Source: Escherichia phage D5505. From it: a stretch of DNA of 64,000 bases. The notes beneath the pieces are model-generated. The model ran no database searches. It was not told the origin of the DNA and saw only the letters and a list, made by a program, of their open reading frames with translations. This document shows positions 44,954 to 57,124 of the stretch, piece after piece. Positions within the stretch are counted from its first letter, which is position 1. Each line of letters begins with the position of its first letter. Position numbers and translations under genes: made by a program. The stretch lies in the sequence record MK327929.1; one strand, 5' to 3'.

Positions 44954-44961
44954 TATAAATA
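44954..44961 (+). promoter_or_regulatory. late promoter TATAAATA upstream of gene 34
   Basis: exact TATAAATA 35 nt upstream of ATG 44996. Confidence 0.55.
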
Positions 44962-44995: not shown

Positions 44996-47900
44996 ATGGC
45001 CGAGATTAAAAGAAAGTTCAGAGCAGAAGATGGTCTGGACGCAGGTGGCGATAAAATAATCAACGTAGCTTTAGCTGACCGTACCGTAGGAACTGACGGT
45101 GTTAACGTTGATTACTTAATTCAAGAAAACACAGTTCAGCAATATGATCCAACTCGTGGATATTTAAAAGATTTTGTAATCATTTATAATAATCGTTTTT
45201 GGGCAGCAACGGATAATATTCCAAAACCTGCTGGAAATTTTAATAGAATTCGTTGGAAAGCATTACGTACTGATGCCGTATATACAACCGTATCATCTGG
45301 ACCATATCAATTAAAATCCGGAGAAGCAATTTCAGTAGATACATCAGTTGGCAATGACATTGAGTTTACTTTACCACCTTCTCCGCTTGATGGAGAAACC
45401 GTAATAATTCAAGATATCGGTGGAAAACCTGGCATAAATCAGGTTAAAATAAATTCTTCAAATCAGAGTATTGTCAATTTTAGAGGTGAACAGGTACGTT
45501 CAGTTTTAATGACTCATCCAAAGTCACAGATGATATTCATTTTTAATAATCGTTTGTGGCAAATGTATGTTGCTGATTATAGCAGAGAAGCTGCGATTGT
45601 TACTCCATCGACTGCGTATCAAGCACAATCTAATGATTTTATCGTACGTAGATTTACTTCTGCTGCACCAATTAATGTTAAACTTCCGAGATTTGCTAAT
45701 CATGGCGATATTATTAATTTCGTTGATTTAGATAAACTGAATCCACTTTATCATACAATTGTTACTACATACGATGAAACGACTTCAGTACAAGAAGTTG
45801 GAACTCATTCCATTGAAGGCCGTACATCGATTGACGGTTTCTTGATGTTTGACGATAATGAGAAATTGTGGAGATTGTTTGACGGGGATAGTAAAGCACG
45901 TTTACGCATTATAACAACTAATTCAAATATTCGTCCAAATGAAGAAGTCATGGTATTTGGCGCGAATAATGGAACAACCCAAACAATTGAACTTCAGCTT
46001 CCGACTGATATTTCTGTTGGTGATACTGTTAAAATTTCCATGAATTACATGAGAAAAGGACAAACAGTTAAAATCAAAGCTGCTGGTGAAGATAAAATTG
46101 CTTCTTCAGTTCAATTGCTGCAATTCCCAAAACGTTCAGAATATCCGCCTGAAGCTGAATGGGTAACAGTTCAAGAATTAGTTTTTAACGGTGAAACTAT
46201 TTATGTTCCAGTTTTACAACTTGCTTATATAGAAGATTCTGATGGAAAATACTGGGTTGTACAGCAAAACGTTCCAACTGTAGAAAGAGTAGACTCTTTA
46301 AATGCTTCTACTAGAGCAAGATTAGGCGTAATTGCTTTAGCTACGCAAGCTCAAGCAAATGCTGATTTAGAAAATTCTCCACAAAAAGAATTGGCAATTA
46401 CTCCAGAAACGTTAGCTAATCGTACTGCTACAGAAACTCGCAGAGGTATCGCAAGAATAGCAACTACTGCTCAAGTAAACTGCTACAGAAACTCGCAGAG
46501 GTATCGCAAGAATAGCAACTACTGCTCAAGTAAATCAGAACACTACATTCTCTTTTGCTGATGACCTTATCATCACTCCTAAAAAGCTGAATGAAAGAAC
46601 TGCTACAGAAACTCGCAGAGGTGTTGCTGAAATTGCTACGCAGCAGGAAACTAATACAGGTATCGATGATACTACAATCATCACTCCTAAAAAGCTTCAA
46701 GCTCGTCAAGGTTCTGAAACATTATCGGGTATTGTAACTTTTGTATCTACCGCAGGAGCTACTCCAGCCTCTAGTCGTGAATTAAATGGTACAAATGTTT
46801 ATAATAAAAACACTAATAATTTAGTTGTTTCACCTAAAGCTTTGGATCAGTATAAAGCTACTCCAACGCAACAAGGCGCAGTAATTTTAGCAGTTGAAAG
46901 TGAAGTAATTGCTGGACAAAGCCAAGAAGGATGGGCAAATGCGGTTGTAACGCCAGAAACGTTACATAAAAAGACATCAACTGATGCAAGAATTGGTTTA
47001 ATTGAAATTGCTACACAAAGTGAAGTTAATACAGGAACTGATTATACTCGTGCAGTCACTCCTAAAACTTTAAATGACCGTAGAGCAACTGAAAGTTTAA
47101 GTGGTATAGCTGAAATTGCTACACAGGTTGAATTCGACGCAGGCGTCGACGATACTCGTATCTCTACACCATTAAAAATTAAAACCAGATTTAATAATAC
47201 TGATCGTACTTCTGTTGTTGCTCTATCTGGATTAGTTGAATCAGGAACTCTCTGGGACCATTATACCCTTAATATTCTTGAAGCAAATGAGACACAGCGT
47301 GGTACACTTCGTGTAGCTACACAAGTTGAAGCTGCTGCAGGAACATTAGATAATGTTTTAATAACTCCTAAAAAGCTTTTAGGTACTAAATCTACCGAAT
47401 CGCAAGAAGGTGTTATTAAAGTTGCAACTCAGTCTGAAACTGTGACTGGAACGTCAGCAAATACTGCTGTATCTCCAAAAAATTTAAAATGGATTGTGCA
47501 GAGTGAACCAACTTGGGCAGCAACTACTCTGATAAGAGGGTTTGTTAAAACTTCTTCTGGTTCATTAACGTTTGTTGGTAATGATACGGTAGGTTCAACA
47601 CAGCCATTAGAATCATATGAGAAAAATGGTTATGCAGTATCACCATATGAATTAAATCGCGTATTAGCAAATTATTTGCCATTAAAAGCAAAAGCTGTAG
47701 ATAGTAATTTATTAGATGGTCTAGATTCGCTCCAGTTCATTCGTAGGGACATTGCACAAACAGTTAATGGTTCACTAACCTTAACCCAACAAACGAATCT
47801 GGGTGCCCCTCTTGTATCATCTAGTACTGCTACATTCGGTGGATCAGTTTCAGCAAATAGTACATTAACTATTTCTAATACTGGAACGGCAACTCGTCTG

Positions 47901-48920
47901 ATTTTTGAGAAAGGACCTCAAACTGGAACAAACCCGGCTCAAACGATGACAGTCAGAGTGTGGGGAAATCAATTTAGCGGGGAATCAGACACAACACGTT
48001 CTACCGTATTTGAAGTTAGTGATGAAACGTCTAGTCATTTTTATTCTCAGCGTAATAAAGCTGGAAATATAACATTTAATATCAACGGTACAGTAACACC
48101 GATAAATGTTAATGCTTCAGGAACATTGAATGCAAATGGTGTAGCAACATTTGGTAATTCAGTCACTGCAACTGGTGAAATTATTTCTCGAAGCGCAAAT
48201 GCTTTCCGTGCTATTAGCGGAAATTATGGTTTCATTGTTCGCAATGACGGGTCAGTAACGAATTTTATGCTTACTGCATCGGGTGATCAGACTGGCGGAT
48301 TTAATGGATTGCGTCCTTTAGCTATTAATAATGCATCTGGCCAAGTAACGATTGGTGAAAGCTTAATCATTGCCAAAGGTGCTACTATAAGTTCGGGTGG
48401 TTTGACTGTTAACTCGAGAATTCGTTCTCAGGGCACTAAAACATCTGATTTATACACCCGCGCTCCAACATCTGATACTGTAGGATTCTGGTCAATTGAT
48501 ATTAACGATTCAGCCACTTATAACCAGTTCCCGGGTTATTTTAAAATGGTTGAAAAAACTAATGAAGTGACTGGGCTTCCATACTTAGAACGTGGCGAAG
48601 AAGTTAAATCTCCTGGTACATTGACTCAGTTTGGTAACACACTTGATTCGCTTTACCAAGATTGGATTACTTATCCAACGACCCCAGAAGCACGTACCAC
48701 TCGCTGGACGCGTACATGGCAGAAAACTAAAAATTCTTGGTCAAGTTTTGTTCAGGTATTTGATGGAGGTAACCCTCCTCAACCTTCGGATATAGGAGCG
48801 ATCCCATCTGATAATGGAATAATAGGTAATCTTACTATTCGTGATTTCTTACGAATTGGTAATGTTCGCATTATTCCTGACCCAGTGAATAAAACTGTTA
48901 AATTTGAATGGGTTGAATAA
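44996..48920 (+). pseudogene. 34: long tail fibre proximal subunit gp34, disrupted by 55-bp tandem duplication (frameshift)
   Basis: ATG-frame terminates at TGA 46559-46561; remainder open in +1 frame 46479-48920; removing one repeat copy gives one 1289-codon ORF. Confidence 0.85.
46424..46533 (+). repeat. perfect tandem direct repeat, 2 x 55 bp, inside gene 34
   Basis: unit ACTGCTACAGAAACTCGCAGAGGTATCGCAAGAATAGCAACTACTGCTCAAGTAA at 46424-46478 and 46479-46533. Confidence 0.95.
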
Positions 48921-48928
48921 GAGGTATT

Positions 48929-50044
48929 ATGGAAAAATTTATGGCAGAGTTTGGACAAGGATATGTCCAAACGCCATTTTTATCGGAAAGCAATTCAGTA
49001 AGATATAAAATAAGCATAGCGGGTTCTTGCCCGCTTTCTACTGCGGGGCCATATGTTAAATTTCAGGATAATCCCGTTGGAAATCAAACATTTAGTGCAG
49101 GTCTTCATTTAAGAGTTTTTGACCCTTCTACAGGAGCATTAGTTGATAGTAAGTCATATGCTTTTTCTGCTTCAAACAATACAACATCTGCCGCTTTTGT
49201 TAGTTTCATGAATTCTTTGTCAAACAATAGACTTGTTGCTATATTAACTAGCGGAAAGGTTAATTTTCCTCCTGAAGTGGTATCTTGGTTAAGGGGAGCA
49301 GGAACTTCAGTTTTTCCATCAGATTCAGTATTGTCAAGATTTGACGTGTCATATGCTGCTTTTTACACTTCTTCTAAAAGAGCTATCGCATTAGAGCATG
49401 TTAAACTAAGTAATAGAAAAAGCACAGATGACTATCAAACTATGTTAGATGTTGTATTTGATAGTTTAGAAGACGTCGGAGCTACAGGATTTCCTAAAAG
49501 AACATACGAAAGCGTTGAGCAATTTATGTCTGCGGTTGGTGGAACTAATAACGAAATTGCGCGATTGCCAACTTCAGCTGCTATAAGTAAACTTTCTGAC
49601 TACAATTTAATTCCTGGTGATGTTCTTTATCTTAAAGCACAACTATATGCTGATGCTGATTTACTTGATCTTGGAACTGCAAATATATCTATTCGTTTTT
49701 ATGATGCATCAAATGGATATATTTCCTCGACCCAAGCTGAGTTTACTGGGCAAGCTGGGTCTTGGGAATTAAAAGAAGATTATGTAGTTGTTCCTGAAAA
49801 TGCAGTAGGATTTACGATATATGCACAAAGAACTGCCCAAGCAGGTCAAGGCGGCATGAGAAATTTAAGCTTTTCTGAAGTATCAAGAAATGGCGGAATT
49901 TCAAAACCTGCTGAATTTGGTGTCAATGGTATTCGTGTTAATTATATCGGTGAATCCTCTTTACCTCCAGATATAATGGTACTTCCTACACAGGCATCGT
50001 CTAAAACTGGTAAAGTGTTTGGACAGGAATTTAGAGAAGTTTAA
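48929..50044 (+). CDS. 35: gp35 long tail fibre hinge connector
   Basis: 371 aa, synteny. Confidence 0.8.
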   Translation: MEKFMAEFGQGYVQTPFLSESNSVRYKISIAGSCPLSTAGPYVKFQDNPVGNQTFSAGLHLRVFDPSTGALVDSKSYAFSASNNTTSAAFVSFMNSLSNNRLVAILTSGKVNFPPEVVSWLRGAGTSVFPSDSVLSRFDVSYAAFYTSSKRAIALEHVKLSNRKSTDDYQTMLDVVFDSLEDVGATGFPKRTYESVEQFMSAVGGTNNEIARLPTSAAISKLSDYNLIPGDVLYLKAQLYADADLLDLGTANISIRFYDASNGYISSTQAEFTGQAGSWELKEDYVVVPENAVGFTIYAQRTAQAGQGGMRNLSFSEVSRNGGISKPAEFGVNGIRVNYIGESSLPPDIMVLPTQASSKTGKVFGQEFREV

Positions 50045-50050
50045 ACTGAG

Positions 50051-50072
50051 GGAGCCTTCGGGTTCCTTTTTT
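50051..50072 (+). terminator. hairpin GGAGCC-TTCG-GGTTCC + TTTTTT after gene 35
   Basis: stem-loop with T-run. Confidence 0.5.
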
Positions 50073-50075
50073 CTT

Positions 50076-50083
50076 TATAAATA
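50076..50083 (+). promoter_or_regulatory. late promoter TATAAATA upstream of gene 36
   Basis: exact TATAAATA. Confidence 0.55.
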
Positions 50084-50106: not shown

Positions 50107-50757
50107 ATGGCTGATTTAAAAGTAGGTTCAACTGTAGGTGGATCTGTCATTTGGCATCAAGGAAATTTTCCGTTGAATTCAGCCGGTGACGATGTACTCT
50201 ACAAATCATTTAAAATATATTCAGAATATAATAAACCACAGGCAGCTGATAATGATTTCGTTTCTAAATCTACTGGTGGTACTTACACAGGCCCAGTTAC
50301 TATTAATTATGGTGTAAATAGTTATCTTCAATTAAGTAATAATGAAACCCCCATCCGAATTCGTTCTGGTGGCGGCACTGGCAATACTCTTGTAGTTGGT
50401 GGCTCTTCTGGCGGTATTAGTTTTAGACCAGCAGGTAGTGAAATCACTACTGGACAAATTACTATTACGCCAGAAGGTTTGACAACATTTACCAAAGCTG
50501 TAAAGGCTCCATCTGTAACTGTTACATCTACTCCTTCCGCAGCATCTGATGCTACTCGTAAAGATTATGTTGATGGAGCAATAAATACTGTTACAGCAAA
50601 TGCAAACTCTAGGGTATTACGCTCTGGAGACACTATGACAGGAAATTTAACTGCGCCAAACCTTTTTTCACAGAATCCTGCATCTCAACCTTCACACGTT
50701 CCACGATTTGACCAAATCGTAATTAAGGATTCTGTTCAAGATTTCGGCTATTATTAA
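50107..50757 (+). CDS. 36: gp36 long tail fibre distal connector
   Basis: 216 aa, synteny. Confidence 0.8.
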
Positions 50758-50765
50758 GAGGACTT

Positions 50766-53711
50766 ATGGCTACTTTAAAACAAATACAATTTAAAAGAAG
50801 CAAAACTGCAGGTCAACGTCCTGCTGCTTCAGTATTAGCCGAAGGTGAATTGGCTATAAACTTAAAAGATAAAACAATTTTCACAAAAGATGACTCAGGT
50901 AGTGTTATAGAATTAGGTTTAAAATATGGAGGAACTATAAATGGGTCTTTAGAGGTTACAGAAAATATAACTGGAACTTTAATTGGAAATTCTAGCACAG
51001 CTACTAAATTGCAAACACCTAGGAAAATTAATGGTATATCTTTTGATGGGTCAAAGGACATTACCTTAACTCCATCTGACATAAATGTCAATAGCACAAC
51101 ATTTATAAAAAATAATGGCGAATTACCTACTGATGCTAATTTAGATACGTATGGGCCCATTGAAGAATATCTTGGTGTTTGGTCGAAATCTACTTCAACA
51201 AATGCGCAACCAGCAAATAAATTCCCAGAAGAAAATGCCGTAGGTGTACTAGAAGTGTTTGTGGCCGGCCAATTTGCTGGCACTCAGCGTTATACTGTAA
51301 GATCTGGTAACGTCTATATTCGTTCCTTATCTGCTAAATGGAATGGCGTCGATGGTCCATGGGGTGTGTGGCGTAATGTTCAAGCGTCAACTCGTCCACT
51401 TTCACAAACGATTGACCTTGATAGCTTGGGAGAATTAGAACATTGTGGCTTATGGCGAAACAGTTCAAGCGCAATCGCATCATTTGATCGCCATTATCCA
51501 GAAGAAGGATCAGCCGCACAAGGATTTTTAGAAATATTTGAAGGTGGTTTATACACGAGAACTCAGCGTTATACTACCCGCATGGGTATGGTTTATACTC
51601 GTTGTCTCGCTGCTGCATGGGATGCTAGTGCACCTAAGTGGGAGGAATGGAAGCAGGTTGGTCATGGCACACCAGCGACTTTCTATGATGGTGACCTTAA
51701 TGATTTTAAAACTCCTGGGTTATATAATATTTTAGGCACCGATGCCGTTATTAACTGCCCTACAGGTGAAGGTTTGCCGCCTGTTATTGTTGGTTTGCTG
51801 GAAGTTAAACAGCGTGCTTCTGGTGGTGCTATTTTCCAAAAATTTACTACTGCCGGAACAGGCGCAACTACTCGCGGACGTATTTTTGAGCGTGCATATA
51901 CTGGTGGTGCGTGGGGTGCATGGAACGAAGTATATACATCTTACTCTCTGCCAATTACTTTGGGTATGGGTGGTATTAAAGCTCAATTAGCGGAGTTAGA
52001 TTGGCAAACCTTTGATTTTGTTCCTGGTAGTATGTTTAGCGTTCCTTTAAACAAAATAAAGAACATGCCAGCAAATATGGATTGGGGGACGATTGACGGA
52101 AACTTGGTTATGTTTTCCGTTGGTCCTAGCGAACACACTGGCACAGGGCGTACTGTTCAGGTTTGGCGCGGTACTGTATCCCAGACAAACTACCGTTATT
52201 TCGTTGTTCGTATCGCTGGTAATCCAGGAAGTAGGACTAATACTTGTCGCCGTGTTGTTCTTGAAGACGGATCACATACTTGGACTGCTCAACAAAACTT
52301 TAGGGGATTGCTGAATATCACTGCTGCTGTTAATCTTGGTGCTAATCAGAAAATTTCACTTGCTCCAGGAGCATATATTCAAGCCCCTGCTAGCGGTTCT
52401 GGTTCTAATACTTACGCAAATCAGAATACTACCATTGCGCCATTATATCAGGCTATTGACGATTCAAATAAAAACCAGTTTGCGCCAATTGTTAAACAGA
52501 AAAATACTGTAAGTAATATCACCTTTGCCACTGGTATGGCTATAGGTACATCCGAATATAAGATCATTGCTCAGGGTGATTTATCCGCTGATGGAACAGC
52601 AGATGGGTTAAAACAGTGGACTTTCATGCCGTCAGGTTATTTTAAATCTCCAGGGCGTGTATATGTCGGTGATGCGTTCCTTAATACAGATGGTAATATT
52701 GCCGGTTCAATCTGGAAGAAATATAACAATGCGACAAATTTAGATGCTGCCTTGAATACTCGCGTAGGTAAAGGCGGTGATACGATGACAGGTCGGTTAA
52801 CAATCAATGCACCTAATGATTCTATTGTATTATCAACGACTGCTAGTAATTCTTTGCATATTCGTGGTGACATAGACGGGACTGGTAACTGGTATATTGG
52901 TAAGGGTGGTGCTGATAATTCGCTAGCATTTTATAGCTATGCTTCTCAGGCGGCAGTACATATCACAAACAATGGTGAGATTGCGTTAAACCCGCAAAAT
53001 ACCGCAATGGTTAACGTTAACCGTGACCGTGTACACATTAACGGTTCTGGATGGATTGCTAGACAACCGGGTGATTGGGGCAACCAATGGCGAGTAGAAG
53101 CTCCATTATTCGTTGATCATGGTTATGTTTCACAGGATTGTTATTATCCTATTCTTAAAGCAAGAAGCGTTATAACCAATCAAGGATATAGCACCGCTGT
53201 TGACTTTGGTATGCGTCGTATTCCATCACAGTGGGGGCAAGCAATCATTCGTGTCGGATCCACGGAGGCTTCTCCTGATGCTGGACACCCACAAGCTGTG
53301 TTTGAATTCCATCATGATGGATTCTTTTATACACCAGGAAATGGTAGCTTTAGCGATGTGTATATTCGTTCTGACTCCCGTCTCAAGATTAATAAAGAAG
53401 AATTAGAATATGGAGCGGTCGAAAAAGTTTGCCGACTGAAAGTTTATATTTACGATAAAGTTAAGTCTATTAAAGACCGTAGTGTTATTAAACGTGAAGT
53501 TGGTATTATTGCTCAGGACCTTGAAAAGGAATTACCGGAAGCTGTATCTAAAGTTGAAGTTGATGGATCTGATGTTCTGACAATTTCTAACTCTGCTGTG
53601 AATGCTCTTTTAATTAAGGCTATTCAGGAAATGAGTGAAGAAATTAAAGAATTGAAAACGCCTCTCTTTACTAAAATTGTTCGCAAAATTAGTAAATATT
53701 TTAAATTCTAA
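50766..53711 (+). CDS. 37: gp37 long tail fibre distal subunit with C-terminal intramolecular chaperone domain (T2-type)
   Basis: 981 aa; C-terminal ...[12 protein letters not shown]... resembles the S74 autoproteolytic chaperone signature. Confidence 0.8.
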
Positions 53712-53716
53712 CAACA

Positions 53717-53734
53717 AGGGGGAAATGCCCCCTT
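53717..53734 (+). terminator. hairpin GGGGG-AAAT-GCCCCC + TTT
   Basis: GC stem-loop between 37 and 38. Confidence 0.45.
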
Positions 53735-53747
53735 TGGAGTATAAATT

Positions 53748-54527
53748 ATGGCAGTAGTTGGTGTTCCTGGTTGGATTGGAAGTTCAGCCGCAAATGAAAC
53801 AGGACAGCGCTGGATGAGTCAAGCGGCTGGTCAATTAAGATTGGGTGTTCCTTGCTGGATGAGTCAATTTGCAGGTCGCTCACGAGAAATTATTCACACG
53901 CTTGGAGCAGACCATAACTTCAATGGTCAATGGTTCCGAGATAGATGTTTTGAGGCAGGTAGTGCACCTATAGTGTTTAATATTACAGGTGATTTAGTAT
54001 CATATTCTAAAGATGTTCCTTTATTCTTCATGTACGGAGATACACCAAATGAATATGTTCAGTTAAATATACATGGCGTAACGATGTATGGTCGTGGAGG
54101 TAATGGTGGTAGCAATAGTCCTGGCTCAGCTGGGGGTCATTGTATTCAAAACGATATTGGTGGGAGACTAAGAATTAATAATGGTGGAGCTATTGCTGGC
54201 GGTGGCGGTGGCGGTGGCGGCGGATATTATTCTCCTTTTTCACAAATGAGATTAACCTTTGGCGGTGGTGGGCGTCCGTTTGGTGCACCTGGCGGATCTA
54301 TTGATATGCAATCAGGCGCAACTGCTGGTACTATTTCTGCACCTGGCTCAGGATCCGTGAATGGTATCTATAATGGTGGAAACGGTGGTGAAGTAGGTTC
54401 CGCGGGAGGTAGATGCAATATTCGCGGTCAAGGATCTGAATATAATGGCGGCGCTGCTGGTTATGCTGTCATAGGGTCTGCTCCAACGTGGCAAAATGTT
54501 GGAGCAATATATGGTCCAAGAGTATAA
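53748..54527 (+). CDS. 38: gp38 tail-fibre tip adhesin (T2-type, glycine-rich motifs)
   Basis: 259 aa; GRMs including a run of 9 Gly (GGC/GGT codons 54198-54224). Confidence 0.75.
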
Positions 54528-54557
54528 TGTGAATAAATACCCTTAAAAGGAGGGTCT

Positions 54558-55214
54558 ATGGCAGCACCTAGAATATCATTTTCGCCCTCTGATATTCTGT
54601 TTGGTGTTCTAGATCGCTTGTTCAAAGATAACGCTACCGGGAAGGTTCTTGCTTCCCGAGTAGCTGTCGTAATTCTTTTATTTATGATGGCGATTGTTTG
54701 GTATAGGGGAGATAGTTTCTTTGAGTACTATAAGCAATCAAAGTATGAAACATACAGTGAAATTATTGAAAAGGAAAGAAATGCACGCTTTGAATCTGTC
54801 GCCCTGGAACAACTCCAGATAGTTCATATATCATCTGAGGCAGACTTTAGTGCGGTGTATTCTTTCCGCCCTAAAAACTTAAACTATTTTGTTGATATTA
54901 TAGCATATGAAGGAAAATTACCTTCAACAATAAGTGAAAAATCACTTGGAGGATATCCTGTTGATAAAACTATGGATGAATATACAGTTCATTTAAATGG
55001 ACGTCATTATTATTCCGACTCAAAATTTGCTTTTTTACCAACTAAAAAGCCTACTCCCGAAATAAACTACATGTACAGTTGTCCATATTTTAATTTGGAT
55101 AATATCTATGCTGGAACAATAACCATGTACTGGTATAGAAATGATCATATAAGTAATGACCGCCTTGAATCAATATGTGCTCAGGCGGCCAGAATATTAG
55201 GAAGGGCTAAATAA
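54558..55214 (+). CDS. t: holin T
   Basis: 218 aa; single N-terminal TM segment and large periplasmic domain. Confidence 0.85.
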   Translation: MAAPRISFSPSDILFGVLDRLFKDNATGKVLASRVAVVILLFMMAIVWYRGDSFFEYYKQSKYETYSEIIEKERNARFESVALEQLQIVHISSEADFSAVYSFRPKNLNYFVDIIAYEGKLPSTISEKSLGGYPVDKTMDEYTVHLNGRHYYSDSKFAFLPTKKPTPEINYMYSCPYFNLDNIYAGTITMYWYRNDHISNDRLESICAQAARILGRAK

Positions 55215-56229: not shown

Positions 56230-56509
56230 ATTGAATCACCTTCAGTTGACGTTTTAGTTCTTTTATCATTTCTTCATTCATCGCAATATAAAGATCGCGT
56301 AAAGCGGGTTTTAACATTCCATTTACTGGAGAACTAAATGGACATACATAATCTTTTCCTACGAGCTTTTTAGTGAATTCCATATTACAGAACTGAAATG
56401 CCGGTTCATTAGCATAAATTCCCCAATTGGTTGACATCATTTTATTGGCATATTCCAATGCTTGGATTTGATTAGTAATTCCATCAATTTGAAACTTTTT
56501 AATATTCAT
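56213..56509 (-). CDS. hypothetical protein
   Basis: 98-aa ORF. Confidence 0.45.
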   Translation of the reverse strand: MNIKKFQIDGITNQIQALEYANKMMSTNWGIYANEPAFQFCNMEFTKKLVGKDYVCPFSSPVNGMLKPALRDLYIAMNEEMIKELKRQLKVIQFGQGN

Positions 56510-56976
56510 TAGTAAAGGTCCTCGGAGTAAAGTTCTTTTTCACTACCACCACGTTCAATACGCACTTGTCCAGCGTAAGTTGCAATAATCATTGCTTCTT
56601 CACGTGTCCAGTAATTGCTATACTGGTCAATAAATCCTTGGTCTTCACCACAAACATGGTCTGATACAAGTTTATCACTTACCTGGTCAAGAACTTCAGC
56701 CATATCTTTAGAATAATGACGAGCACCAGGAATAACCAGAGTCCCACCATCTTTTAACTTAAAGCGGTTGGCTGCACACACAATTCGACGTTGATATTTT
56801 TCATTATTGTTCCAATGTGCTACTTGCCAACAGATTTCAGGAACCTCTTCTAAAACATCCTCTTCCGTATATTCGGTGTAGTCGCCATAGGCCTGTAATT
56901 TAGCTGCTAGACTTTCTGGAGTTTCACGTAATAAAGCCAGGTCTAATAATTCAAGACGCTCTTTGAAGGTTTTCAT
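56509..56976 (-). CDS. hypothetical protein
   Basis: 155-aa ORF. Confidence 0.45.
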
Positions 56977-57124
56977 TTGGTTTCCTCAACACTTTTAATT
57001 TTTATAGCTTGTTTAGAACTTTCAAAGCATTGACAATATACTCTTACCGCATCAAACTGGTTGGCCGCTTTAAGATGGACTACACCTTCGTCGTTATAAA
57101 ATTCTACGACAATTTTAAATGTTT

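Follow-up and report, generated by a model that had tools for sequence, protein, structure and literature searches.

Phage D5505 carries a T2/T6-class gp37–gp38 receptor-recognition module with a predicted self-cleaving chaperone, predicted Tsx specificity and variable glycine repeats

Introduction

A described counterpart of the fibre tip considered here is that of phage S16 (PDB 6F45), in which a trimeric gp37 sheds a 113-residue autocleaved chaperone and is then capped by a single gp38 adhesin. Cleavage of S16 gp37 takes place at DLNVS^SDRRIKK (^ marks the cleaved bond) and frees 113 amino acids (aa) (Salem et al., PMC7917993). Three tryptophans anchor S16 gp38 in the tip of gp37, and its long central glycine-rich motif 151-GGGGGGGG-158 forms the middle polyglycine-II (PGII) helix, PGII helix 3 (PMC6851490). 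Adhesins of this class reach different receptors: S16 binds OmpC of Salmonella, PP01 binds OmpC of O157 (PMC12892980), and T6 and RB5 both use Tsx (PMC3157838). T4, in contrast, has a gp38 that is an unrelated chaperone, and its gp37, which has no S74 domain, binds the receptor with a tip of its own. We analysed genes 37 and 38 in a stretch of 64,000 nucleotides (nt) from Escherichia phage D5505, a Tequatrovirus (MK327929.1); this whole stretch is called the window, and all coordinates are window positions. We are highly confident that the two genes form a standard T2/T6-class receptor-recognition module in which gp37 processing, Tsx use, recombinational exchange relative to T4 and slippage at glycine repeats would all have their part.

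The family, structure, cleavage and receptor logic of such modules are all published, near-identical phages have already been described, and the module itself is ordinary. Its sole novelty is a unique variant lacking one glycine, and the reality of this variant is uncertain.

Results and Discussion

Gene 37 (50766..53711) encodes the 981-aa precursor of the long tail fibre distal subunit, while gene 38 (53748..54527) encodes a 259-aa protein that we predict to be the receptor-recognising adhesin capping the fibre tip. Features described below lie on the plus strand unless stated otherwise. Both lengths agree exactly with an initial annotation, which had proposed for this locus a T2-type module of a gp37 with a C-terminal chaperone and a glycine-rich adhesin. 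The proteins are letter for letter the GenBank entries QBO61257.1 (gp37) and QBO61258.1 (gp38) of phage D5505, encoded on a 168,049-bp contig, and gp37 matches phrog_1699 ("long tail fiber protein distal subunit", E 8e-204). Gene 38 sits directly 3' of gene 37 and 5' of the holin gene t (Phage_holin_T, 54558-55214), the position that is typical of the adhesin family.

By sequence, gp38 matches both Pfam models of the adhesin family, GP38 (PF05268; E 3e-70, 236.8 bits against a cut-off of 25) and Gp38_N (PF21721; E 6e-20, 71.4 bits against a cut-off of 25), as well as phrog_2056 ("tail fiber protein; host specificity", E 1e-110). Its PDB sequence matches, both over the full length, are PP01 (9V85, E 4.5e-78) and S16 (6F45_D, E 5.9e-49); a scan of NCBIfam with gp37 and gp38 returned no family. 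An AlphaFold2 model of gp38, built on 69 homologues, reached a predicted local distance difference test (pLDDT) score of 86.5 and a predicted template modelling (pTM) score of 0.78. When this model was compared with the PDB using Foldseek, the significant matches were gp38 adhesin structures only, namely the PP01 receptor-binding domain 9V85 (target-normalised template modelling (TM) score 0.86, root-mean-square deviation 2.2-2.5 Å) and S16 6F45_D (query-normalised TM score 0.73). PP01 gp38 is the best structural match, at 65% identity with different receptor loops; S16 gp38 is about 45% identical, again with different loops, and shares the three-tryptophan attachment domain, the beta-helix and the PGII sandwich.

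gp38's N-terminal attachment domain (aa 1-42; 53748..53873; PF21721) presents the tryptophan "prongs" W9, W22 and W37 within a pseudo-repeat of three units, the first of which reads GVPGWI; the pseudo-repeats D1 and D3 are visible in the DNA as well. All three tryptophans are conserved with T6, T2 and IP008, and among the 69 homologues W9 is invariant and W22 at least 90% conserved. As a side observation, gp38 of CM8 has the third of these conserved prongs replaced by leucine (W37L), yet CM8 is a working Tsx phage.

The receptor-binding domain (aa 47-259; 53886..54524), delimited from PF05268, AlphaFold2 and Foldseek, combines a beta-helix with a PGII sandwich, and its glycine-rich motifs alternate with hypervariable segments as is characteristic of the adhesins. 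Glycine makes up 23.6% of gp38 and 33% of aa 115-259. In line with the glycine-rich motifs and intervening variable segments noticed at the outset, we count 12 runs of at least two glycines with non-glycine segments between them. The longest holds nine glycines (aa 151-159; 54198..54224) encoded by the microsatellite-like (GGC GGT)n array GGC GGT GGC GGT GGC GGT GGC GGC GGA, where Tandem Repeats Finder picks out (TGGCGG)x4 (54197-54220). Position and count are as first described; the codons had been given as GGC/GGT throughout, a trivial slip, since the last is GGA. This run is the counterpart of the S16 motif that forms PGII helix 3, and its positions 152-157 are invariant or at least 90% conserved among the 69 diverse homologues, so it is no chance feature. 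It is followed by a hypervariable loop (aa 160-171; 54225..54260), named HVS2 following Trojet et al., where the model has its lowest confidence within gp38 (pLDDT about 70), and then by a second run of four glycines in front of RPFG (54261..54272; GGC GGT GGT GGG).

The C-terminus of gp37 carries the chaperone and cleavage signature that had been proposed from its SDSRLK-type motif. Peptidase_S74 (PF13884) matches aa 869-927 of the 981 residues (E 6.3e-10, 39.6 bits against a cut-off of 22), covers profile positions 1-57 of 58 and begins exactly at S869 of SDSRLK (aa 869-874; 53370..53387). With phmmer, aa 863-968 align to the chaperone region of S16 gp37 (6F45_A), and from S869 to the end of gp37 there are 113 residues, the length that S16 releases. 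The residues around the predicted cut, DVYIR^SDSRLKI, match the DVYIR^SDGRLKI of the fPS phages, which Salem et al. aligned to the S16 site (PMC7917993). We predict S869 to be the scissile, nucleophilic serine and K874, five residues downstream, to be the general base. Their spacing equals that of S^SDRRIK in S16 and that of Ser1264 and Lys1269 in T5 pb1, which is cleaved at Thr1263^Ser1264 with Lys1269 as partner (PMC4690869). From these homologies we infer that gp37 cleaves itself between R868 and S869.

The comparison with T5 pb1 and the K1F endosialidase extends to the shared Pfam family, the Ser-x4-Lys at the start of the domain and its C-terminal position. The fibre or spike upstream, however, is unrelated to D5505 gp37, and whereas cleavage in T5 pb1 and K1F unmasks the receptor site itself, in D5505 it is proposed to unmask a docking site for a separate adhesin. 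The S16 gp37 shaft before the cleavage site is likewise unrelated to that of D5505 except for the last residues. When the PDB was searched by sequence with full-length gp37, only the S16 C-terminal fragment was found, leaving the shaft with no solved relative by sequence. Within the shaft, gp37_trimer (PF20744) matches aa 692-742 (52839..52991; E 1.5e-4), with 22.2 bits barely over the 21.7-bit cut-off. At the other end, the first 64 residues (50766..50957), which form the gp36-joining end, are the sole part of gp37 conserved with T4, at 75% identity to aa 1-64 of T4 gp37.

Taken together, the tip would be built as follows. gp37 would be synthesised as a 981-aa precursor whose C-terminal S74 chaperone (aa 869-981, 113 aa; 53370..53708) would make the distal fibre trimerise and fold. 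Once the trimer has folded, the chaperone is predicted to cut itself off through the S869/K874 dyad and to be released, baring a flat tip formed by DVYIR (aa 864-868; 53355..53369), the predicted end of mature gp37. A single gp38 would then dock on this surface via its three-tryptophan domain, so that the beta-helical C-terminal domain, with the PGII sandwich made from the glycine-rich motifs, may present the variable loops between these motifs to the receptor. The same architecture has been solved for S16; for D5505 it is predicted.

The module was next compared with T4 at the nucleotide level. In blastn, similarity to T4 ends at 50920 and resumes at 54533, with none at 50921-54532, while the flanks are 90-99% identical; the locus position between gene 36 and t is the same in both phages. 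Because similarity breaks off and restarts in this way, the module is mosaic, and the comparison indicates that genes 37 and 38 were exchanged by recombination relative to T4. The earlier proposal of a mosaic fibre tip in an otherwise T4-like backbone is thereby confirmed. T2 likewise has no nucleotide similarity across about 51000-54500. The DNA of the module shares 99.7% identity with ES19, ES21 and LF73P1 and 99.2-99.4% with PYps47T and CM8; gene 37 is about 100% identical to ES19. Paracelsus is the best match of the upstream 25 kb (98.9%) but falls to 74-89% in parts of gene 37. We also saw that similarity to T4 is lost in mid-gene 36 (50250-50550), precisely at 50286-50552, so the exchanged region has a second, smaller block upstream of gene 37. 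Another small mosaic patch lies downstream at 56500-57000, where an open reading frame (ORF) on the minus strand (56509..56976) occupies the arn.3 position; this patch shows 74-86% identity to T4, T2 and Paracelsus and 99.6% to ES19, with flanks 93-99% identical to all of them.

As a class name, "T2-type" is appropriate. As a description of the allele it is not: alignment with T2, T6 and their relatives upheld the adhesin class but gave gp38 identities of 94% to T6 and only 53% to T2, which identifies the D5505 sequence as T6-like rather than T2-like. The gp38 loops differ from those of T2, whose gp38 binds FadL/OmpF, and the 1341-aa T2 gp37 gives strong alignments at two places only, aa 1-71 and 845-968 of D5505 gp37, plus a weak one (25%) over aa 453-671. 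T6 (AF052605; Tsx-specific) has its genes in the same order and shares the nine-glycine run and, in essence, all four hypervariable segments. Its gp37 matches aa 1-524 at 91% identity and aa 676-981 at 86%, with no counterpart of aa 525-675 at E<1e-5; its gp38 differs by 16 substitutions, an extra glycine at aa 110 and five glycines, not four, before RPFG. Closer still, the gp38 proteins of IP008, ES19/ES21 and fPS-65 are identical to that of D5505 apart from the one missing glycine, although IP008 has a shorter gp37 (854 aa) with a different middle portion. CM8 (3 substitutions), WilhelmHis (6), RB5 (7) and PST (11) lie between these and T6.

This ranking bears on the receptor. CM8 was assigned Tsx/HepI by random barcode transposon sequencing (bioRxiv 10.64898/2026.04.02.716166), and WilhelmHis (Bas35) requires tsx, as shown with complementation (PMC8594841). 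The HVS2 sequences of CM8, WilhelmHis and RB5, all Tsx-dependent, are identical to that of D5505. Because D5505 gp38 has the loop set of T6 and differs by only 3-7 residues from phages shown to need Tsx, the primary receptor on E. coli K-12 is most likely the nucleoside channel Tsx. In PST the three residues R, I and I confer OmpA use and the capacity to infect Yersinia (PMC3157838); D5505 keeps Q166, M167 and G206 at these places.

The second subject of the comparison was the length of the glycine runs. A scan of IMG/VR with gp38 yielded 13 loci, several of which are copies of GenBank phages; as these are too few for an indel survey, we used 108 family representatives (90% clusters) for the population view and an alignment of gene 38 DNA from eleven close relatives for individual events. 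Among the close relatives, five of eight indel events fall in the two glycine runs, together 5% of the gene (before PYps32T was included the count was four of seven, with binomial P about 2e-4). Across the 108 representatives the central run varies between 4 and 9 glycines, and in PYps14T, AV121 and PYps32T it reaches 12 residues against the 9 of D5505. PYps14T and AV121 are separated from the sister phage PYps15T, whose gp37 is identical, by exactly one GGCGGCGGT unit (12 versus 9 glycines). The 12-residue run of PYps32T has a different codon background, and PYps32T itself shares its gp37 with PYps47T while gp38 differs. The Yersinia phages PYps47T (54 nt) and ZN18 (51 nt) carry independent tandem duplications of HVS2 that include part of the glycine run and are bounded by the two glycine tracts (gp38 aa about 160-195).

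These patterns suggest that, among the relatives, slippage by whole units and unequal exchange take place at the GGY repeats. Crossovers in glycine-rich motifs are documented (Tetart 1998, as cited in PMC3157838), so the principle is already known. The initial annotation had named the nine-codon run as a potential slippage hotspot, for which the indel count gives comparative support; the change in D5505 itself, however, lies in the second run. There, at 54261-54272, D5505 is one GGT short of the (GGT)3 tract found in its relatives, which read GGC GGT GGT GGT GGG. Five glycines precede RPFG in all ten DNA comparators and all sixteen protein comparators, and the run before RPxG has five glycines in 106 of the 108 representatives, which makes the four-glycine motif of D5505 a rare outlier.

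We also asked whether the length of the central run follows the range of Yersinia hosts. It does not do so cleanly: PYps14T with 12 glycines lyses 61% and PYps15T with 9 glycines 66% of the Y. pseudotuberculosis strains, and AV121, also with 12 glycines, is an E. coli isolate. For PYps47T, Hammerl et al. record the change in gp38 as a "15-aa insertion" and offer no interpretation; this phage lyses 41% of the Y. pseudotuberculosis strains, and its sister phages 61-68%.

Several other explanations have to be weighed against the module as described. Gene 38 of D5505 shares its name and position with gene 38 of T4, and gp38 could accordingly be an assembly chaperone only, with gp37 itself binding the receptor. 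We regard this as having practically no chance of being correct. BLASTP of D5505 gp38 against T4 gp38 (NP_049864) gave a best E of 1.6 over 12 residues, that is, no similarity, which effectively refutes a T4-type identity; gp38 is of the adhesin family by both sequence and fold; and in gp37 the T4 needle-tip sequence is missing, an S74 chaperone forming the end of the protein instead. More room must be given to the possibility that the module works as described with a primary receptor other than Tsx, be it OmpA, OmpF or the lipopolysaccharide (LPS) core alone, owing to the missing glycine or to a few loop substitutions. The following points count against Tsx. Small changes can switch the specificity of such adhesins, as the three residues of PST show, and in RB68 gp38 the single change Q206L moves the phage from OmpF to OmpW (bioRxiv 10.64898/2026.04.02.716166); because one loop change can be enough, near-identity is strong evidence for a receptor but no proof. 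One group of OmpA-binding adhesins is phylogenetically near the Tsx group. Finally, fPS-65, with the same gp38 plus one glycine, infects Yersinia, which has no Tsx, and needs the inner-core heptoses of LPS there (PMC7917993), so the adhesin may be polyvalent. Against this stand the HVS2 shared with the Tsx phages and the fact that A193G and N233D are the sole differences from CM8 in the receptor-binding domain, while the OmpA-dependent FL18 is just 75% identical. We therefore consider a non-Tsx primary receptor improbable and retain Tsx as the prediction.

The missing glycine raises a question of its own. Whole-motif glycine deletions are lethal in T6, so the loss in D5505 may affect function, which again speaks against an ordinary working module. 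The loss could also be a sequencing or assembly error, the real phage encoding the common 260-aa protein of IP008, ES19 and fPS-65. The 259-aa sequence is found in one record only, all comparators show five glycines here, and the same assembly has a conspicuous defect in gene 34 (44996-48920). This gene contains an exact 55-bp tandem duplication at 46424-46534 (2.0 copies, 100% identical) that is present neither in ES19 nor in T4 and shifts the frame, giving ORFs of 521 and 692 aa. A genuine frameshift would leave the phage without long tail fibres, a further point against a functional module. Since 55 is a common k-mer length of assemblers, the duplication is likely an untrimmed k-mer overlap left after rotation of the circular contig, and its presence lowers our trust in the one-codon deletion of gene 38. 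On the other hand, the in-frame loss of exactly one unit from (GGT)3 is what replication slippage yields and is atypical of short-read assembly errors, and the neighbouring run varies genuinely in length among the relatives. On balance we think an error rather unlikely, albeit the most probable of these alternatives. A further thought may be offered, though we hold it to be doubtful: the GGY tracts flanking HVS2 could act as a built-in device for length variation, similar to a contingency locus, whose viable variants, generated by slippage and unequal exchange, would retune loop presentation and host range. Its candidate products may include the glycine loss of D5505, the three additional residues of PYps14T, AV121 and PYps32T, and the HVS2 duplications of PYps47T and ZN18.

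The surroundings of the module are T4-like and syntenic, with rnh, genes 34, 35, 36, 37 and 38, the holin gene t, asiA, arn and motA. A sigma-70 promoter scan found 10 sites against 15 in shuffled controls; as such a scan is uninformative for a late T4-type operon, we searched directly for the late-promoter consensus. An exact match to the T4-type sequence TATAAATA lies upstream of gene 36 (50076..50083) and is likely to be the start of a late transcript of genes 36, 37 and 38, possibly reaching t. A terminator-like hairpin (50048-50069) stands just upstream of it, and a second late-promoter consensus precedes gene 34 at 44954. Within the 36-nt spacer between genes 37 and 38 there is a GC-rich hairpin, AGGGGG-AAAUG-CCCCCU (53717..53733; minimum free energy -16.3 kcal/mol), a possible outer stem of which pairs with the Shine-Dalgarno sequence GGAG of gene 38 (53736-53739). 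The fold barely beats shuffled sequence (z -1.97), and any part it might play in translational coupling or in the stability of the mRNA is speculation. ORFs antisense to gene 37, such as 50813..51283 on the minus strand, were taken as chance ORFs. In gp35, the proximal hinge connector (48929-50044), aa 58-112 match Pfam ILEI (33.3 bits against a cut-off of 27, E 7e-8), the interleukin-like EMT inducer / FAM3 domain, a surprising name in a phage fibre protein.

Conclusion

In summary, genes 37 and 38 of phage D5505 encode a T6-like member of a well-described class of fibre tips, in which a gp37 with a predicted self-cleaving chaperone would be capped by a glycine-rich adhesin. gp37, listed in the D5505 record as "hypothetical protein", can now be annotated as the distal subunit of the long tail fibre, carrying an S74 chaperone. 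The predicted use of Tsx is testable and may be of use in the choice of phages for cocktails or in host-range engineering. Sister phages with identical gp37 that differ by repeat-unit indels in gp38 add a modest but tangible piece to what is known of recombination in glycine motifs. Should the GGY tracts indeed serve as a length-variation device, the four-glycine motif of D5505 would be a real functional example of such variation in an otherwise 98% invariant motif.

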